Source: a phage. From it: DNA of 64,000 nucleotides. The notes below the pieces were generated by a model. It saw only the letters and a program-made list of their open reading frames with translations. It did not search any database and was not told where the DNA came from. Each line of letters opens with the position of its first letter. The first letter of the stretch is position 1. Both the position numbers and the translations under genes were made by a program. This document shows, in pieces, positions 39,479 to 44,671 of the stretch. The stretch is from the NCBI GenBank assembly GCA_032691205.1, contig GCA_032691205.1_4541.1. One strand, written 5' to 3'.

Positions 39479-39501
39479 TCTCACCTGCATAAAAATTTTT
39501 G

Positions 39502-39544
39502 TAAACTTTAAATTTTGCTTTTGTACTTTCATTTTTGTAAAAGC
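39502..39544. repeat. direct repeat copy 1 (about 43 bp)
   Basis: taaactttaaattttgcttttgtactttcatttttgtaaaagc. Confidence 0.55.
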
Positions 39545-39639
39545 AAAAAAACTTTAAATACTGTGGGCGCGCAAAATTTTTAAAATTTTCCTTGACTTTT
39601 GAGTTTTGTTTTGTATCTAACATTTTAAGATAATTTTCC

Positions 39640-39679
39640 TAAACTTTAAATTTTGGTTTTCAACTTTCACTTTTGTAAA
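39640..39679. repeat. direct repeat copy 2
   Basis: taaactttaaattttggttttcaactttcacttttgtaaa. Confidence 0.55.
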
Positions 39680-39921
39680 TTCTTAAAAAGTTTAAATAAT
39701 TTGAGGGATTTTTGAGATAATGGATAGTGGGAATTTGATATAACCTTTAATCTTATTAGTAGACCTTCAGGAACCCACCTAGATCGAATCCTAGTGATGC
39801 AAACTGAAAAAGATAAGTGTTTGTATAGGACAAAATAACAGGCTCTCTACGGTGCTGTAGGAGCCTTATTTCTGTGCTACAAAGTGACACCTTTGTTCTA
39901 AAAATGAAAAAAGTTAAAATA

Positions 39922-40464
39922 TCACAAATATCGTCTTTGCGGTATTTTGTCTGGGAAAAGTATTTCGATCAGTTTATTATGATATTTGCCTAAAAGATTC
40001 TGCCCTTTCCAGGTGGCAGGGTTTAGCACCCCTGGTTCATACATCCCCATTCCAATTCCGTAAACCTTATCGTAGGGGCTTGCTTCAACAAACGTTTTGT
40101 ATTGGTAAAGGTGTAAGTCTGCATACAAATCTGGATTCTGTACATATTTCAAGCATAAACCTCGCATAACAATACGCTCACGGTTCTCTTCCCATACATT
40201 GTTATCAAAATCCGACACTGCCCTACCCATACGTTTGTAATAAGCTTGGATCTTCTCATCTTTCCGTATCAAACTATGAGTCAGAATAGCCTGTGCAGTG
40301 TTGTGGTCATTAAAAAGCAAAGCTTTACGCCACATCATATATTGTTCGACACAATTAAATGTCTGATTGTAACCTGGTTCGGTTTCTGTAAAGGGTGCAA
40401 TATACCAATTACTAAAAACATCTTTATGTGAAAAGAAGAATACATAATCATCAGTTATTCGCAT
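39922..40464 (-). CDS. NADAR/YbiA-like (DUF1768) domain protein
   Basis: FFFSHKDVFSNWY, EQYMMWRKALLF, KRMGRAVSDFDNNVWE and EASPYDKVYGIG match the NADAR pattern as I recall it. Confidence 0.65.
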   Translation of the reverse strand: MRITDDYVFFFSHKDVFSNWYIAPFTETEPGYNQTFNCVEQYMMWRKALLFNDHNTAQAILTHSLIRKDEKIQAYYKRMGRAVSDFDNNVWEENRERIVMRGLCLKYVQNPDLYADLHLYQYKTFVEASPYDKVYGIGMGMYEPGVLNPATWKGQNLLGKYHNKLIEILFPDKIPQRRYL

Positions 40465-40675
40465 TTTTCATGCCTTCTAAAACTTTAGCTTGCCCGTCTT
40501 GAAAAGCTTTCATCAGAACTATCTTAAGATTGATTTCCAAACGTTCTTCATCCTCTCTATAACAATCCAACACTGCTTTAAGTTCATCATAGTGGTTCAG
40601 AATAGGTTTAAAGATTTCATGGTCTGCTAAACGTGCCATAGTTTCTCCTTTGTTAATCCATCCACCAGTAGCCAT
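40451..40675 (-). CDS. hypothetical protein (74 aa)
   Basis: ORF track. Confidence 0.5.
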   Translation of the reverse strand: MATGGWINKGETMARLADHEIFKPILNHYDELKAVLDCYREDEERLEINLKIVLMKAFQDGQAKVLEGMKNANN

Positions 40676-41018
40676 AAACTGCGTCTGCGTCGATGAGTTT
40701 GTGTTTGTTGTTCCGCATGTAGTCTAAGATAAGTAGACGTTTATTGTATCTGGAGAGATTATGACCCTCTTTTCCGCCATAGTCAAAATATTTTGCAAGA
40801 TCTTTACACTCAAACAAAATCAGTTCGGGAGTTTCTTCACACTGGTCTGTCTGGTACACTTGACGAATGATCATGTATACATCGTCGTCTTCCGCTAAAT
40901 GCTCTACTGGTCCACATCCAGCAGGAACAAATTCATAGTCCCATCTGATCAGATGTTTCTCTACTGCTTCAAAGAAGTCCATTCTTTCGTTGCGCATAAT
41001 TTGAACGTCAACTAACAT
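40653..41018 (-). CDS. hypothetical protein (121 aa)
   Basis: ORF track. Confidence 0.55.
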   Translation of the reverse strand: MLVDVQIMRNERMDFFEAVEKHLIRWDYEFVPAGCGPVEHLAEDDDVYMIIRQVYQTDQCEETPELILFECKDLAKYFDYGGKEGHNLSRYNKRLLILDYMRNNKHKLIDADAVYGYWWMD

Positions 41019-42472
41019 GTTTCCTCCTCTCTCATTATTCCACCTGCTTGGTTGATAGCACTTAAGACGATAGCCAAATCCTCGCGCAGGAAGGTTTCAC
41101 TATGACCATCTTTCATGTGCAAGCGTTCTACACAGCCAATAGACGGTAGAATCTGATCAGTCTTAGACTTTAGCTTACTCTCTAACGCCCTGCAAGCTTG
41201 GTAGGACGGCAGATCGAACAATGCTATACGGCGCATAGAGTAATTGTTGTTTGCATTCTGCCCTTTGATCCTGATATCACTGTCCTTTGCAATCCCCAAC
41301 TTGTAAGCTCCCGTGTCTTCTCCGTACTCATCAAGAATAATATTGATGTAAAATTCTTGCATATTTCTGTTCTTACAGCCTGGACAACCTTTCCCATTGA
41401 GATAATCGGTAGGTGTGATCGTTTGCTCTCCATGCTCCCTACATAGATATTTAAACTTGCTGTTATTGCTTACCTTATCAATGAATCCTATAAATTGATC
41501 CCCTCGTTCCTGGCAAGCTTTGGTCATACGGTAGGCCCATTGTTCAGGAGTGTAATGATAATATTTAGAACAACGGCAAGGAAGGCCACCCCTTTTCAAA
41601 TGACTCATCTTCATCTCAAATTTATTATCGCATAAGCCTTCTTTACAATAATCATCCTCTGCACATATAGGACATTCTACAGTCCAGTAAACCTGACGAC
41701 CTAATCTATCTACTCTATCGCTACGATAATATTTACGCTCTACATTATCAGGACAAGCTTTTATAAAATCTTCAACATGTTGTTTATCCTCCATTGTATT
41801 CCTTTGTTTCGTCATTTCTCTTTGACAACTGTAGCATCCAGTCCCTTGTTTAGCACTGTTTACAGTGGTAGTGCACCATTGACCATGAACCTTACACTCA
41901 CAAATCAACTTAGTGCGGGAACCGTTCCACGGTTCCACATAGCCTCTAACAATCCAGGGTTTTTCTTTATAAGCTTCTTCTACTTCTTCTTTATGTTTCT
42001 CCCATGCAATCGATGTTCTTTCTCTGTTTGCTTCTCCCATACACTTCCTGCATCCACTCCCGTTTTTCGCAGAAGATATAGAAGTAGACCTCCACTCCCC
42101 ATGTAAAGCACAACAACAAACCAGTTTAGTATTCCATCCTTTCCATTCTCCGTGCCATCCTGTAACAGTCCAAAACTTACCTGCCTGATTGTAAGTGGTT
42201 TGCACTTCTTCTTTATATTGCTCCCAGGTTTTTGATTTGTTTATAGATACTGCTTTACTTATAATCTCCCTACCGCATTCTGGACAACCCCTCCCTAGTT
42301 TAGCGGTATTTATGCTTGTTGTTTTCCATTCTCCATGCAGAGCACAGATGCATCTAAGTTTAGTTTTATTGCCGTTCCACGGCTCAATATAATCTACAAC
42401 AGTCCAAGACTTACCTTGATAAGCTTGTTTTATATCTGTTTTATATTGTTCCCAAGTGACTATTTTTGGCAC
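41012..42472 (-). CDS. zinc-ribbon tandem-repeat protein with C-terminal T5orf172/GIY-YIG-like domain (putative)
   Basis: Three-plus repeats of W.V..Y.EPWNG..TKL.C.C..HGEW.TT....AK.G.GC..C; C-terminus FYINIILDEYGEDTGAYKLGIAKDSDIR. Confidence 0.6.
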   Translation of the reverse strand: MPKIVTWEQYKTDIKQAYQGKSWTVVDYIEPWNGNKTKLRCICALHGEWKTTSINTAKLGRGCPECGREIISKAVSINKSKTWEQYKEEVQTTYNQAGKFWTVTGWHGEWKGWNTKLVCCCALHGEWRSTSISSAKNGSGCRKCMGEANRERTSIAWEKHKEEVEEAYKEKPWIVRGYVEPWNGSRTKLICECKVHGQWCTTTVNSAKQGTGCYSCQREMTKQRNTMEDKQHVEDFIKACPDNVERKYYRSDRVDRLGRQVYWTVECPICAEDDYCKEGLCDNKFEMKMSHLKRGGLPCRCSKYYHYTPEQWAYRMTKACQERGDQFIGFIDKVSNNSKFKYLCREHGEQTITPTDYLNGKGCPGCKNRNMQEFYINIILDEYGEDTGAYKLGIAKDSDIRIKGQNANNNYSMRRIALFDLPSYQACRALESKLKSKTDQILPSIGCVERLHMKDGHSETFLREDLAIVLSAINQAGGIMREEETC

Positions 42473-42527
42473 ACCTCCCCCTTTAGCTATTAGTGCGAGC
42501 CTACAACAAAAGAATAACTAAAATCCC

Positions 42528-42554
42528 TCCATAACAAATGCCCCTTGCGGGGCA
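42528..42554 (-). terminator. possible terminator hairpin (minus strand)
   Basis: atgccccttgcggggcat. Confidence 0.45.
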
Positions 42555-42560
42555 TCTTTA

Positions 42561-43700
42561 TTAGAACACGCTACCAAGTGTAGTGGAACGTTGTGTTACA
42601 GGCTCCAGCACCACTCGCAGAGTGTTTCCTGGTGTAGTGCTCATCACCAGAATCTTACCACCTTCAATCAGATCACAAGTTAGACCATCAGCAGTTGCAC
42701 ATAGATCAATATGTGGATCGCCATCTTCGTCTAGGATAACATAACTGTTGGTTTCCATTGCTTCCACTTCATCATCTTTCAAGCTTTGCAGATAGATGTT
42801 CAGGGAACAAGCACCCGACAAAAACTTAGTAGGGGTGAAGTCGTGCCAGTTATTGATCCAATTCACCTTCAAGGTTTTGCCATTAGCTACGATAGAAGCC
42901 ACATTCCATTTAGCATCGTTGCCTAAAGAAATACCCATCATTTCAAGACATTCTTTAAAAGTCATTTTTGGATAGAAATTCAATTCTTCTACAATGCCTT
43001 GAATAACATCGAAAGACAACTCTGTGCTAACATCCCATAAACGTTGGAAGTTATCTACGTGCTTTTTATTTACCAAGTTCTTATCCAAGTAATCTAACAT
43101 GGTTTCACTAGACAGTTTATCGTAATTGAAACTGTAATAGATACGACTAGGACGGTTTACAAAATATTCCGAGATATAGCCACTATTTTTAGTGAGGATG
43201 TAAAGTTTATTCCCACTTCCTGTTCCATCCAACAAGGTCAACAGTGCTTCCTGATCTTCTTTTTTAGCGTACACTTTATCAAATTCGTCAAATAAAACAA
43301 CAGCACGATCTGTAATTTTACTCATAAATTCTAAGAATCCAGCATCTGTGTAAGGTTGTGTAACCAAAATGGTTGGAATACCTAAACCTTCTGTGGACAT
43401 TAAAGACATGCTAATCAGTTTAGCTAACATCGTCTTACCACTGCCCTTTGTCCCTGTCAGTAACACCCCAGTATTTTTACCTTCTTTACTACGACGAGCA
43501 AATGTTTTAATAACATGTGCGGCGCGGTCTTTAGTTTCCCCATAAAGAGTGTTCGGAAGAGAGAAACTTTCGCCACGCACTAAAGAGTAGTTACCGTGCG
43601 GATCGCAGTTGACAACCCAAACTCCAGCAGGAAGTTTATTAGCTTCAACGCCATATTCCTTATTTACAACAGCCACATCTCCAAAAATAGTGTATTTCAT
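42561..43700 (-). CDS. P-loop NTPase (AAA-like ATPase)
   Basis: Walker A GTKGSGKT; Walker B-like VVLFDEFD. Confidence 0.7.
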   Translation of the reverse strand: MKYTIFGDVAVVNKEYGVEANKLPAGVWVVNCDPHGNYSLVRGESFSLPNTLYGETKDRAAHVIKTFARRSKEGKNTGVLLTGTKGSGKTMLAKLISMSLMSTEGLGIPTILVTQPYTDAGFLEFMSKITDRAVVLFDEFDKVYAKKEDQEALLTLLDGTGSGNKLYILTKNSGYISEYFVNRPSRIYYSFNYDKLSSETMLDYLDKNLVNKKHVDNFQRLWDVSTELSFDVIQGIVEELNFYPKMTFKECLEMMGISLGNDAKWNVASIVANGKTLKVNWINNWHDFTPTKFLSGACSLNIYLQSLKDDEVEAMETNSYVILDEDGDPHIDLCATADGLTCDLIEGGKILVMSTTPGNTLRVVLEPVTQRSTTLGSVF

Positions 43701-44086
43701 TAGAACGTTTCTCCTTTTAAAATAATTACTGTAAACTTTGCAGTTTTTTCACTCTTAATATTCTTGATTAATAAGTATTCTCCTCCAGGGGCATCTTTAT
43801 ATTGTTTAATAGCTACTATTTCATTTTTGCAAGTGGCTATAATCGAATAAAAAGGACGTTCCGTGTTATCTTCTTTTCCTGTATATGCCTCAACATCTTT
43901 ACACTCTTCTAGAACACCATTTCCAGGTGTATAGTAAAATTTGTTGCCTGTGATCACAACATCTTTACCAATATCCGTTTTAACTGCTACAAATTTTTGA
44001 GCGTAAGTGGTGAAGCTTACGGTAGCCAGCAATGTGGCTAAGATTAATTTTTTCATAAACTTCCCTCCTATTCCCACAACATACAA
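43700..44086 (-). CDS. secreted/periplasmic protein with signal peptide (128 aa)
   Basis: N-terminus MKKLILATLLATVSFTTYA; RBS AGGAGGGAAG. Confidence 0.6.
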   Translation of the reverse strand: MYVVGIGGKFMKKLILATLLATVSFTTYAQKFVAVKTDIGKDVVITGNKFYYTPGNGVLEECKDVEAYTGKEDNTERPFYSIIATCKNEIVAIKQYKDAPGGEYLLIKNIKSEKTAKFTVIILKGETF

Positions 44087-44232
44087 ATCGCAGCGACAAA
44101 CATATTAGCAATAGCCGCACCAAGAACTATAAACATCGCCAGTTCTGAACAATATTCACCAACCAGAGGGGATACTATTGCACAAAGTAGTCCCAATGTC
44201 AAACACAAATTGATGATGAAGTTTAAAATCAT
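44068..44232 (-). CDS. possible small membrane peptide (54 aa), not in ORF track
   Basis: Own translation MILNFIINLCLTLGLLCAIVSPLVGEY...; overlaps next gene by 19 nt. Confidence 0.3.
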   Translation of the reverse strand: MILNFIINLCLTLGLLCAIVSPLVGEYCSELAMFIVLGAAIANMFVAAICMLWE

Positions 44233-44241
44233 ATTCTCTCC

Positions 44242-44433
44242 TTACAACCAACCCTTTGCCCGGTAGCCTTTAGAAAATCCATCTTCCCATTCTTCGAATT
44301 CCTTTTTGTGTGTCTTTGGACAATATGGATTTACTTTATTAAACATACCAAACTTGAACCCTGCGGTATACCCTTTCTTAAAAGCTATTGATTCTAAAGA
44401 GATCATATTCTTTCTCCTCTTAGAACTCGACAA
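44242..44433 (-). CDS. hypothetical protein (63 aa)
   Basis: ORF track. Confidence 0.5.
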   Translation of the reverse strand: MSSSKRRKNMISLESIAFKKGYTAGFKFGMFNKVNPYCPKTHKKEFEEWEDGFSKGYRAKGWL

Positions 44434-44671
44434 TGATTTTGTCTAAGTGTTCTGCTTCAACTTGGGATAATGTTAACACCTGCACCAAACCTCTGTCAAT
44501 GCCTAATTTGATCACTTGCAAATAATCACCGAAAAGATCAGAGATTTCAATCTGGTGTTCAGTAACCACCACGACCTCGTTACCCTTGGTATACTCTCTC
44601 CAGATTCGTCCACACTTGTAAATGAAATCTTTCTGGTCTTCACTGATCATCTTAGGCTTAACGCTTAACAT
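44420..44671 (-). CDS. hypothetical protein (83 aa)
   Basis: ORF track. Confidence 0.5.
   Translation of the reverse strand: MLSVKPKMISEDQKDFIYKCGRIWREYTKGNEVVVVTEHQIEISDLFGDYLQVIKLGIDRGLVQVLTLSQVEAEHLDKIIVEF

Follow-up and report, generated by a model that had tools for sequence, protein, structure and literature searches.

Proteins that combine CapR/DUF723 zinc-finger repeats with a T5orf172 domain have been described as putative homing endonucleases (Netter 2021, PMC8096241; Barth 2023, PMC10448857). Among them are the HEGs of the Vibrio phage ICP1 (Gp130, Gp165, Gp121, Gp174 and Gp53), which carry CapR/DUF723/DUF4379-type repeats in their N-terminal part and T5orf172 in their C-terminal part and which, like the protein described here, are putative nucleases known from their sequences. 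The only member of the family with proven in vitro cleavage is Odn (ICP1 Gp88), a protein of 226 aa acting in anti-satellite defence, whose cleavage is abolished by the exchange E180A (Barth 2021, PMC8263062). CapR, with which the PLE satellite represses the capsid operon of ICP1, is derived from the same HEG family but is a stand-alone DNA-binding transcriptional repressor of 15.5 kDa without a nuclease domain. Its signature consists of a CxxC...CxC motif with a spacer of 24-26 aa, and Cys-to-Ser mutants together with EMSA have shown that the four cysteines are needed for DNA binding (PMC8096241).

The window analysed here is a stretch of 64,000 nt belonging to Phapecoctavirus, a phAPEC8-like E. 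coli phage, and thus to another phage lineage, infecting E. coli and Klebsiella, than Vibrio phage ICP1. The open reading frame of 486 aa given in a preliminary description of this DNA was confirmed and lies on the minus strand, starting with GTG (42472-42470) and ending with TAG (41014-41012). The gene and its surroundings comprise the following features:

41012..42472, minus strand: complete gene, putative CapR-module/T5orf172-type homing endonuclease (ORF list)
42561..43700, minus strand: upstream neighbour, conserved AAA ATPase (Pfam AAA, 8.7e-7)
42538..42555, no strand assigned: G+C-rich palindromic, terminator-like hairpin just past the ATPase stop codon (terminator scan)
40653..41018, minus strand: downstream neighbour, ORF of 121 aa whose start overlaps the endonuclease stop (ORF list)
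41016..41029, minus strand: RBS (GGAGGAGG) and ATG of the 121-aa ORF, inside the last codons of the endonuclease gene (EEETC*) (sequence)

As in ICP1, the gene is free-standing and adjoins a conserved gene, the AAA ATPase, which we count as an HEG-like feature; according to Barth 2023 (PMC10448857), HEGs often lie inside essential genes or near them. It is named “hypothetical protein” in most GenBank phage records and “endonuclease” in RefSeq. The latter name is also carried by gp194 of Klebsiella phage ZCKP1, which shares 98.7-99% DNA identity with the gene, and by PHROG 681, which matches the 486-aa protein over its full length at 9e-84. The gene sits within a co-directional block and overlaps translationally with the 121-aa ORF, for which no Pfam match was obtained. 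No sigma-70-like promoter was found in front of the gene, and the hairpin upstream of it carries a terminator annotation in ASO2A and Schickermooser. Neither the module array nor the nuclease domain has a paralog elsewhere in the 64-kb window.

The 486-aa protein was found to hold five zinc modules of two kinds, followed by a C-terminal nuclease domain:

42263..42460, minus strand: R1, aa 5-70, canonical type C-x-C-x2-H...C-x2-C (repeat comparison)
42029..42232, minus strand: R2, aa 81-148, canonical type (repeat comparison)
41813..42010, minus strand: R3, aa 155-220, canonical type, with which the conserved core begins (repeat comparison)
41564..41788, minus strand: R4, aa 229-303, CapR-type CxxC...CxC with C267, C270, C299 and C301 (Pfam CapR)
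41366..41554, minus strand: R5, aa 307-369, degenerate canonical copy, C344-x2-H347...C363-x2-C366 (shuffle statistics, HMM)
41015..41365, minus strand: GIY-YIG-fold/T5orf172-type nuclease domain, aa 370-486 (model and conserved residues)

R1 to R3 are Cys/His modules of approximately 66 aa which, together with a helical linker, produce a repeat period of about 75 aa. They are 45-53% identical to one another (R1 shares 53% with R2 and 50% with R3), BLAST assigning E-values between 1e-24 and 1e-31 and Smith-Waterman alignment, against 500 shuffles, z-scores of 25-38 (29-38 for R1, 25-29 for R2 against R1 and R3). The three clear repeats reported earlier are hence far beyond chance, and the motif quoted for them, W.V..Y.EPWNG..TKL..., fits R1 and R3, and R2 with small changes. 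These repeats were missed by self-BLAST of the protein and were exposed by small-word pairwise BLAST and shuffle statistics. A recent tandem duplication was considered as their source and rejected in view of a nucleotide identity of 57-60% and a third-position identity of 38-52%. R2 shares 61-69% identity with the opening repeat of phiWec179, P0002, P0003, P0008 and P0010, and is the copy nearest to the repeat at the N-terminus of the other proteins of lineage A that were compared.

The fourth, degenerate copy of the preliminary description corresponds to R5, which aligns to R1 to R3 with z 5-9 and E-values between 1e-7 and 2e-4 and is detected at an i-E of 0.025 by an HMM built from these modules. 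The count of four repeats did not hold, since R4 constitutes a fifth module of a different kind, lacking any pairwise similarity to R1-R3 or R5 (z about 0). Pfam CapR (PF21817), a family built around CapR itself, matches the protein in five stretches with 98.1 bits, the cut-off being 24.2, and the best stretch (aa 257-302) lies within R4. R4 shares the CxxC...CxC motif with CapR, its spacer between C267-x2-C270 and C299-x-C301 being 28 aa, slightly above the published range. Among 20 homologs C267 and C301 are invariant and C270 and C299 at least 90% conserved, and the same set shows C193, C213 and C216 of R3 and all four putative ligands of R5 to be invariant. The conserved ligands suggest that the modules bind zinc and DNA.

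In the full-length AlphaFold2 model (pLDDT 84) all five modules adopt a fold of a helix and three strands. R1, modelled with an additional short helix, reaches a pLDDT of about 70-80, and values exceed 90 from R3 onward. A Foldseek search of the full-length model against the PDB returned nothing significant, the weak top matches being tandem dsRBD proteins (E 0.02-0.2). RNA binding was considered on account of these matches and of Pfam DSRM_2, which stayed below its threshold (E 0.068), and was rejected, as they reflect only a shared alpha-beta-beta-beta-alpha module topology. The NCBIfam search yielded solely a sub-threshold YnfU zinc match. The zinc-ribbon label given to the repeats earlier is amended, the modules being better assigned, as a prediction, to zinc fingers of the CapR/DUF723/DUF4379 type, of which DUF4379 is a probable treble clef according to Pfam.

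The C-terminal segment FYINIILDEYGEDTGAYKLGIAKDSDIR, previously singled out as nuclease-like, was located at aa 374-401. The AlphaFold2 model of aa 367-486 (pLDDT 89.9) shows an alpha/beta fold whose antiparallel sheet has three strands and whose elements follow one another as beta1-beta2-alpha-beta3-alpha, which is the GIY-YIG fold, so that the nuclease-like C-terminus on which the preliminary description had staked its proposal was indeed found. Foldseek ranked SLX1 and At-HIGLE first for this domain, with weak, non-significant E-values. Both are structure-specific eukaryotic DNA-repair nucleases with a RING/PHD partner domain, and at an identity of 10-15% the likeness implies no functional link. 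At the motif level Y375, R401 and E431 are present, the Tyr of YIG is replaced by Lys (K391-L-G393) and Gln405 occupies the position of His31 in I-TevI. The motif is therefore probably a T5orf172 variant, that is, a non-canonical GIY-YIG motif. Among 143 family representatives, which are 20-39% identical, K391, G393, R401, E431, D455, G456, E459 and T460 are invariant and Y375 is at least 90% conserved. In comparison with I-TevI and the T4 GIY-YIG HEGs (Seg proteins) the domain order is reversed, the nuclease of I-TevI being N-terminal, and a five-fold zinc-module array takes the place of the zinc finger, alpha-helix and HTH with which I-TevI binds DNA.

The resemblance to T5orf172 claimed earlier was substantiated in spite of the fact that Pfam T5orf172/MUG113 (PF10544/PF13455) does not match the 486-aa protein even at E <10 and that close relatives reach 16-18 bits, under the cut-off of 20. 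Across the family T5orf172 matches 33 and MUG113 22 of the 143 representatives (E <= 0.01; best 6e-5 and 5e-6, respectively). ICP1 Gp130 matches the nuclease domain with 83.5 bits (E 6e-28), and a tblastn match to the “putative homing endonuclease” Gp165 of about 1e-23 covers aa 175-479. Profile alignment by hhalign with Odn, Gp53, Gp121, Gp165 and Gp174 is weak (score 25.3, probability 22%, P 9.5e-4), and 20 column-shuffled control profiles scored 7.6-15.8. An earlier hhalign result (97%, E 7e-11) was discarded because its ICP1 set had included Gp130, which belongs to the subfamily of the query, and a row for Gp5, which lacks the domain. The similarity to Odn is thus remote, but all motifs are in register: K-[IV]-G, R, E and E-[TW]-F align with those of accepted T5orf172/MUG113 members, Odn sharing K-[IV]-G, the Arg, the Glu and S/V-E-T-F, and E431 aligns with its catalytic E180. 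PDB profile and single-sequence searches with the nuclease domain and the whole protein returned nothing useful, and a word-index homolog search using the Odn nuclease domain was empty. What sets the domain apart from the ICP1 HEGs in general is its divergent Gp130 type, and this type is shown to account for 782 cluster representatives, a sizeable T5orf172 subfamily largely missed by Pfam.

The slot downstream of the AAA ATPase is occupied in 60 of 60 listed Phapecoctavirus records as well as in 4 of 4 Justusliebigvirus genomes examined, in which a member of the endonuclease family again directly follows the ATPase. The ATPase protein is 100% identical across Phapecoctavirus and 64-65% identical in Justusliebigvirus, and is the anchor of the slot in both genera. 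In the Phapecoctavirus records the slot spans 3202-3701 nt, and an empty site would measure about 2200 nt. None of these 60 records and 4 genomes has an empty site, so the presence/absence signature of HEGs is missing; the only phage without a gene in the slot was the distant Serratia phage BF. Two deep allele lineages with an identity of 33-39% occupy the slot between flanks that are 96-98% identical, and alleles differ in carrying one to three N-terminal modules. As in the ICP1 HEGs, repeat numbers vary and domains are shuffled, and a zinc-module array of the same kind was also found fused to another nuclease domain. The locus differs from the ICP1 HEGs in its comparatively long array of five modules and in a slot that is never empty and holds two deep lineages.

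The alleles appear to be replaced in the manner of a cassette with sharp, variable boundaries. The DNA homology between the two lineages resumes exactly at the RBS and ATG of the 121-aa ORF, which form the 3' boundary of the exchangeable cassette. The tail EETC is conserved in both lineages because the RBS and ATG are embedded there. The 5' boundary region is the hairpin at 42538..42555, which is retained in iGC_PHA_EC001; in phAPEC8, tuntematon and SKA64 a different hairpin stands there, and the ATPase gene diverges over its final ~25 nt as well. It appears from these sequences that some alleles exchange the terminator and the end of the ATPase gene too. In pairwise comparisons tracts of near-identity are centred on the gene. 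A recent sweep, considered because the gene is nearly identical between phages with diverged ATPase genes, was downgraded: across 10 genomes the diversity of the gene (pi 0.0071) is about equal to that of the ATPase (0.0098), and the population as a whole gave no sign that a sweep had occurred recently.

All 10 phage copies that were compared have an intact reading frame, and alleles of the second lineage likewise showed no frameshift or stop codon. The variable codons of the gene comprise 16 nonsynonymous and 15 synonymous ones, as opposed to 2:34 in the neighbours (Fisher P 2e-5); for the 121-aa ORF the ratio among the 10 genomes is 1:10. The excess is concentrated in R1 and R2 (10:5), and aa 1-80 hold 6 of the 16 nonsynonymous ones, but the contrast of R1-R2 with the rest of the gene is not significant (P 0.16). 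This high nonsynonymous share and the failure of Pfam to recognise the nuclease domain would suit a decaying, non-functional HEG remnant subject to neutral drift. Such a remnant is nevertheless very improbable given the intact copies of both lineages, the pairwise pN/pS of about 0.24 with 0 nonsynonymous versus 3 synonymous differences in the nuclease domain, the active-site and zinc-ligand residues that are invariant over deep divergence, and the confident predicted folds. The ORFs are intact and under partial purifying selection.

A role as a DNA-binding regulator, whose array would bind a promoter or operator and whose nuclease would be silent or rarely used, is suggested by CapR and by I-TevI, which doubles as repressor and nuclease (discussed in Barth 2023, PMC10448857) and represses its own promoter. 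The CxxC...CxC motif needed for DNA binding in CapR is present in R4, and the gene is permanently resident in a co-directional block in which it overlaps the next ORF. However, CapR lacks the nuclease domain that is kept here with conserved catalytic-motif residues and an N:S ratio of 1:3 among the 10 copies. A regulator would not need a nuclease, and its retention therefore counts against a pure regulator. As no operator-like repeat was identified either, we regard this role as improbable.

Somewhat better supported, yet still unlikely, is a domesticated targeting nuclease that cuts the DNA of competitors (a co-infecting phage, a satellite or the host) as ICP1 Odn cuts the PLE origin, in which case an arms race would diversify the zinc-module array. 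Odn-like anti-satellite T5orf172 nucleases have already been proposed for Phapecoctavirus Mt1B1_P17 (Barth 2023, PMC10448857). The same slot is fixed in two genera whose ATPases are only 64% identical, and the gene is intact with invariant catalytic residues, which favours a domesticated nuclease because a purely selfish HEG at fixation is expected to decay. The replacement excess over the neighbours and the variable number of N-terminal modules would fit as well. On the other hand, relaxed constraint explains the raised N:S ratio equally well, homing between alleles would also yield cassette-like allele replacement, and the zinc modules are of the generic HEG type, unlike the captured RepA_N-type specificity domain of Odn. 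A related proposal, which we hold to be slightly less likely still, is that the gene serves the Stephanstirmvirinae as a resident, diversifying allelic weapon: each nuclease would cut satellites or, in marker exclusion, co-infecting relatives whose slot holds the other allele. Two ancient lineages with one to three swappable zinc modules would then be retained in one fixed slot, where gain, loss and replacement of modules might shift the target specificity.

Taking these observations together, we consider the gene product to be, rather probably, a modular homing-type endonuclease that is free-standing and belongs to the CapR-module/T5orf172 family within the GIY-YIG superfamily. For homing speak the diverged alleles between conserved flanks, the sharp breakpoints, the near-identity tracts and the neighbouring ATPase; against it stand the slot without empty sites, the similar diversity of gene and ATPase, the missing Pfam T5orf172 match, the weak hhalign and Foldseek results and the lack of a sigma-70-like promoter. 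The earlier suggestion that DNA-binding modules fused to a nuclease indicate a homing endonuclease or a targeting effector agrees with the published description of the family (PMC8096241, PMC10448857). In such an enzyme the five independently folded zinc-binding modules, four of the type C-x2-H...C-x2-C and one of the CapR type CxxC...CxC, would be joined by helical linkers and read an extended DNA site, and the C-terminal domain would cut DNA nearby by means of Y375, R401 and a metal bound to E431. Judging by analogy from other phage HEGs, the cut would presumably fall in co-infecting relatives at or near the junction of the ATPase gene and the 121-aa ORF. Recombinational repair from the genome of the cutter could copy over the gene with short flanks, and this copying would both maintain and exchange the alleles in the slot.

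The protein kind has already been described in other phages, and the find is thus real and fairly ordinary; new are the slot occupancy across two genera, the two deep lineages, the sharp boundaries and the replacement excess, mostly in the outer modules. A gene mostly called “hypothetical protein” in GenBank phage records obtains a firm annotation. If each module reads a few base pairs, the array may, speculatively, become of interest for programmable nucleases. Since these phages are therapy candidates, nuclease-driven exchange in co-infection bears on the stability of phage cocktails. The slot of Phapecoctavirus and Justusliebigvirus represents a natural experiment with the same flanks, two deep lineages and one to three extra zinc modules, which could test how modular zinc-finger arrays set the target specificity of HEGs and whether “fixed” HEGs persist via phage-phage competition.

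The region 39500-44500 of this phAPEC8-like myovirus (genus Phapecoctavirus, subfamily Stephanstirmvirinae) shares 98.7% identity with Klebsiella phage ZCKP1 and about 97-98% with some twenty E. coli phages. It contains, as proposed in the preliminary description, an open reading frame for a 486-aa protein:

42561-43700, conserved AAA ATPase gene, the upstream neighbour
41012-42472, minus strand, gene of the 486-aa protein, GTG start

The orthologue is annotated as "endonuclease" in RefSeq and the gene as "hypothetical protein" in most GenBank records; PHROG 681 ("endonuclease") matches the protein over its full length (9e-84). The GTG start is located 1 base 3' of a Shine-Dalgarno-like GGGGAGG run (window 42473-42480), an unusually tight spacing, and the haplotype of phages WPEC4 and ASO2A differs within this run at 42475-42477, which might affect the translation efficiency. 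In Escherichia phage vB_EcoM-Ro121lw (record L018, 1024-2352) a shortened CDS of 1329 nt is annotated; since the full 1461-nt ORF is intact, a truncation was rejected in favour of a start-site discrepancy in the annotation.

The protein is predicted to carry five zinc modules upstream of its C-terminal domain:

R1, aa 5-70, canonical module
R2, aa 81-148, canonical module
R3, aa 155-220, canonical module
R4, aa 229-303, different module, C267-x2-C270...C299-x-C301
R5, aa 307-369, degenerate canonical copy, C344-x2-H347...C363-x2-C366

R1, R2 and R3 are 45-53% identical to one another (BLAST E 1e-24 to 1e-31; pairwise Smith-Waterman z 25-38 against shuffles), and their duplication is old, given a nucleotide identity of 57-60% with only 38-52% at third positions. 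R5 is a genuine but degenerate copy (z 5-9) whose cysteine/histidine set is invariant among homologs. The three repeats and the degenerate copy described from the sequence were thus recovered, but R4 had been overlooked as a further, different module: it resembles none of the others in pairwise comparison and gives the best match to Pfam PF21817 ("CapR homology domain"), which matches five stretches in all (98 bits). In the full-length AF2 model (mean pLDDT 84, >90 from R3 onward) each canonical module is a three-stranded sheet preceded by a helix and followed by a short one, with helices linking the modules; Foldseek and sequence searches of the PDB returned no solved structure resembling the array. 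The sole look-alikes of the alpha-beta-beta-beta-alpha topology of R1-R3 and R5, all non-significant, were tandem dsRNA-binding-domain proteins (Foldseek E 0.02-0.2; Pfam DSRM_2 E 0.068), probably a coincidence of topology.

The C-terminal domain had no match in Pfam, NCBIfam and PDB sequence searches. However, the model of aa 367-486 built from 14 homologs is confident (pLDDT 89.9), with the element order beta-beta-alpha-beta-alpha...beta-alpha, and its top two Foldseek hits, with weak E-values, were SLX1 and At-HIGLE. The domain profile retrieved 782 cluster representatives among 1.8 billion proteins, always in C-terminal position. In 143 representatives 20-39% identical to the query, the invariant residues include K391, G393, R401, C427, E431, D455, G456, E459 and T460, with Y375 conserved to at least 90%; Pfam detected T5orf172 in 33, MUG113 in 22 and CapR in 123 of these. 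Among the putative T5orf172 homing endonuclease genes (HEGs) already published, ICP1 Gp130 scored 83.5 bits against the family HMM, and aa 175-479 matched ICP1 Gp165 in tblastn (~1e-23). The hhalign match to "classical" ICP1 T5orf172 domains only was modest but in register (P 9.5e-4; score 25.3, against 7.6-15.8 for shuffled controls). In Odn, the origin-directed nuclease of ICP1, the residue aligned with E431 is E180, and the E180A mutant does not cut DNA in vitro (PMC8263062). Fold and motifs therefore support a predicted T5orf172-type GIY-YIG nuclease, as the preliminary description had suspected, and the domain belongs to a divergent T5orf172 subfamily at the detection limit of Pfam.

This architecture is of an already known kind. 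Netter et al. 2021 (PMC8096241) traced CapR, a repressor encoded by the PLE satellite, to the zinc-finger region with which ICP1 T5orf172 HEGs bind DNA, and showed that DNA binding by CapR needs its four cysteines. In Barth et al. 2023 (PMC10448857), CapR, DUF723 or DUF4379 (in places printed DUF4397) zinc fingers occur in 87% of 229 T5orf172 HEGs, often repeated as "beads on a string", with repeats gained and lost and domains swapped. Mt1B1_P17, placed in Phapecoctavirus by our searches, is one of three related E. coli phages in which that paper also notes Odn-like T5orf172 proteins. A CapR/I-TevI-like regulator appears a rather improbable function for the 486-aa protein.

Related modules were also found in other contexts. 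The 665-aa homologs P0027 and P0028 carry DUF723/DUF4379-type arrays related to R1-R5 on a different C-terminal nuclease domain (PHROG 559, 9084 and 7140, annotated as HNH, homing and intron-encoded nuclease; D...E-Y-D...H motif; very weak match to the AbaSI endonuclease domain), which shows that the nuclease domain attached to this type of DNA-binding scaffold is exchanged. The metagenomic homolog P0002 (669 aa, 22-kb contig) joins a lineage-A-like member (63% identical to the query) head-to-tail to a second complete copy with a lineage-B-like nuclease domain, and is either two tandem HEGs read through or a genuine fusion. In the ICP1 reference genome (L022, 2635-3420) annotated Gp5 shows no T5orf172 motifs in its last 135 aa, in agreement with Barth et al. 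2023 (PMC10448857), where gp5 frameshifts are reported for more than half of ICP1 isolates.

Between the ATPase gene and a 121-aa ORF that has its RBS and ATG within the last codons of the 486-aa gene, the slot was filled in all 60 phage records listed (of 72 matching), by the 486-aa allele in 23 and by alleles of about 326-402 aa in the remainder. The alleles form two deep lineages: A comprises the 486-aa allele and that of phiWec179 (337 aa; 67% mutual identity), B those of phAPEC8 (394 aa), iGC_PHA_EC001 (402 aa), tuntematon (332 aa) and SKA64 (326 aa; 60-75% mutual identity). Lineages A and B share 33-39% identity, yet their flanks are 96-98% identical. Neither lineage has a fixed number of N-terminal canonical modules (three or one in A, two or one in B). 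DNA homology between the lineages ends abruptly, on the 3' side at the RBS of the downstream gene and on the 5' side at the terminator hairpin that follows the ATPase gene; in phAPEC8, tuntematon and SKA64 the replaced stretch also takes in this hairpin and the final ~25 nt of the ATPase gene. Justusliebigvirus, the sister genus, has an ATPase 64-65% identical to this one and, immediately after its gene, a family member of 329, 390 or 397 aa; in the distant Serratia phage BF a tRNA takes its place.

Variable codons over ten genomes (N, nonsynonymous; S, synonymous)
486-aa gene, whole: N 16, S 15
R1-R2: N 10, S 5
Nuclease domain: N 1, S 3
ATPase: N 2, S 34
121-aa ORF: N 1, S 10

The 486-aa gene is intact in all ten copies compared, with a pairwise pN/pS of ~0.24 between two sub-haplotypes whose nuclease domains differ at no nonsynonymous and three synonymous positions; neutral decay of the gene is very unlikely. 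The N:S counts of this gene differ significantly from those of the ATPase (Fisher P 2e-5); within the gene, R1-R2 do not differ significantly from the remainder (P 0.16). In some phage pairs near-identity tracts are centred on the gene (window versus ZCKP1, one difference over 40482-42619; WPEC4 versus ASO2A, none over 40953-42871). However, at the population level the gene (pi 0.0071) is about as diverse as the ATPase (0.0098), and a recent sweep is therefore not claimed.

The 74-aa ORF (40451-40675, minus strand) exists in two very different haplotypes among close relatives, with ~56-60 differences in ~190 nt between WPEC4 and the window or ASO2A and a divergent patch likewise in SKA64, and is a second small replacement cassette beside the slot. 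The 180-aa ORF two genes downstream of the 486-aa gene (39922-40464, minus strand) encodes a NADAR domain (Pfam 7.8e-36; "GTP cyclohydrolase II / COG3236" in many records) with a hypervariable patch (pi up to 0.14 at 40100-40400) among ten phages otherwise ~98% identical, which suggests mosaic replacement or diversifying selection. The sign of the GC skew switches near 8-10 kb and once more near 46 kb, fitting changes in transcription direction. The segment at ~28-38 kb has a higher G+C (0.41-0.43) and an AT skew that is strongly negative. Within the 64-kb window neither tRNA nor tmRNA genes were found.

A domesticated, diversifying nuclease targeting competitors or satellites, like Odn, would agree with a slot that is permanently occupied in two genera, with catalytic residues that do not vary and with outer modules that evolve fast, and we regard it as a less probable though serious alternative. 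The nuclease fold and motifs, the CapR modules and the published family bear out the earlier reading of a homing endonuclease or target-recognising effector, and we infer zinc binding, DNA binding, cleavage, a target site and homing. The available parts of Netter et al. 2021 and Barth et al. 2023 do not discuss this gene or its slot; relative to the literature found, only the locus-level pattern is new. The 486-aa protein is probably a free-standing, active homing endonuclease of the T5orf172 type that would read a long DNA target through its five zinc modules, and the allele replacement in its slot may be the trace of homing or of recombination between co-infecting relatives.
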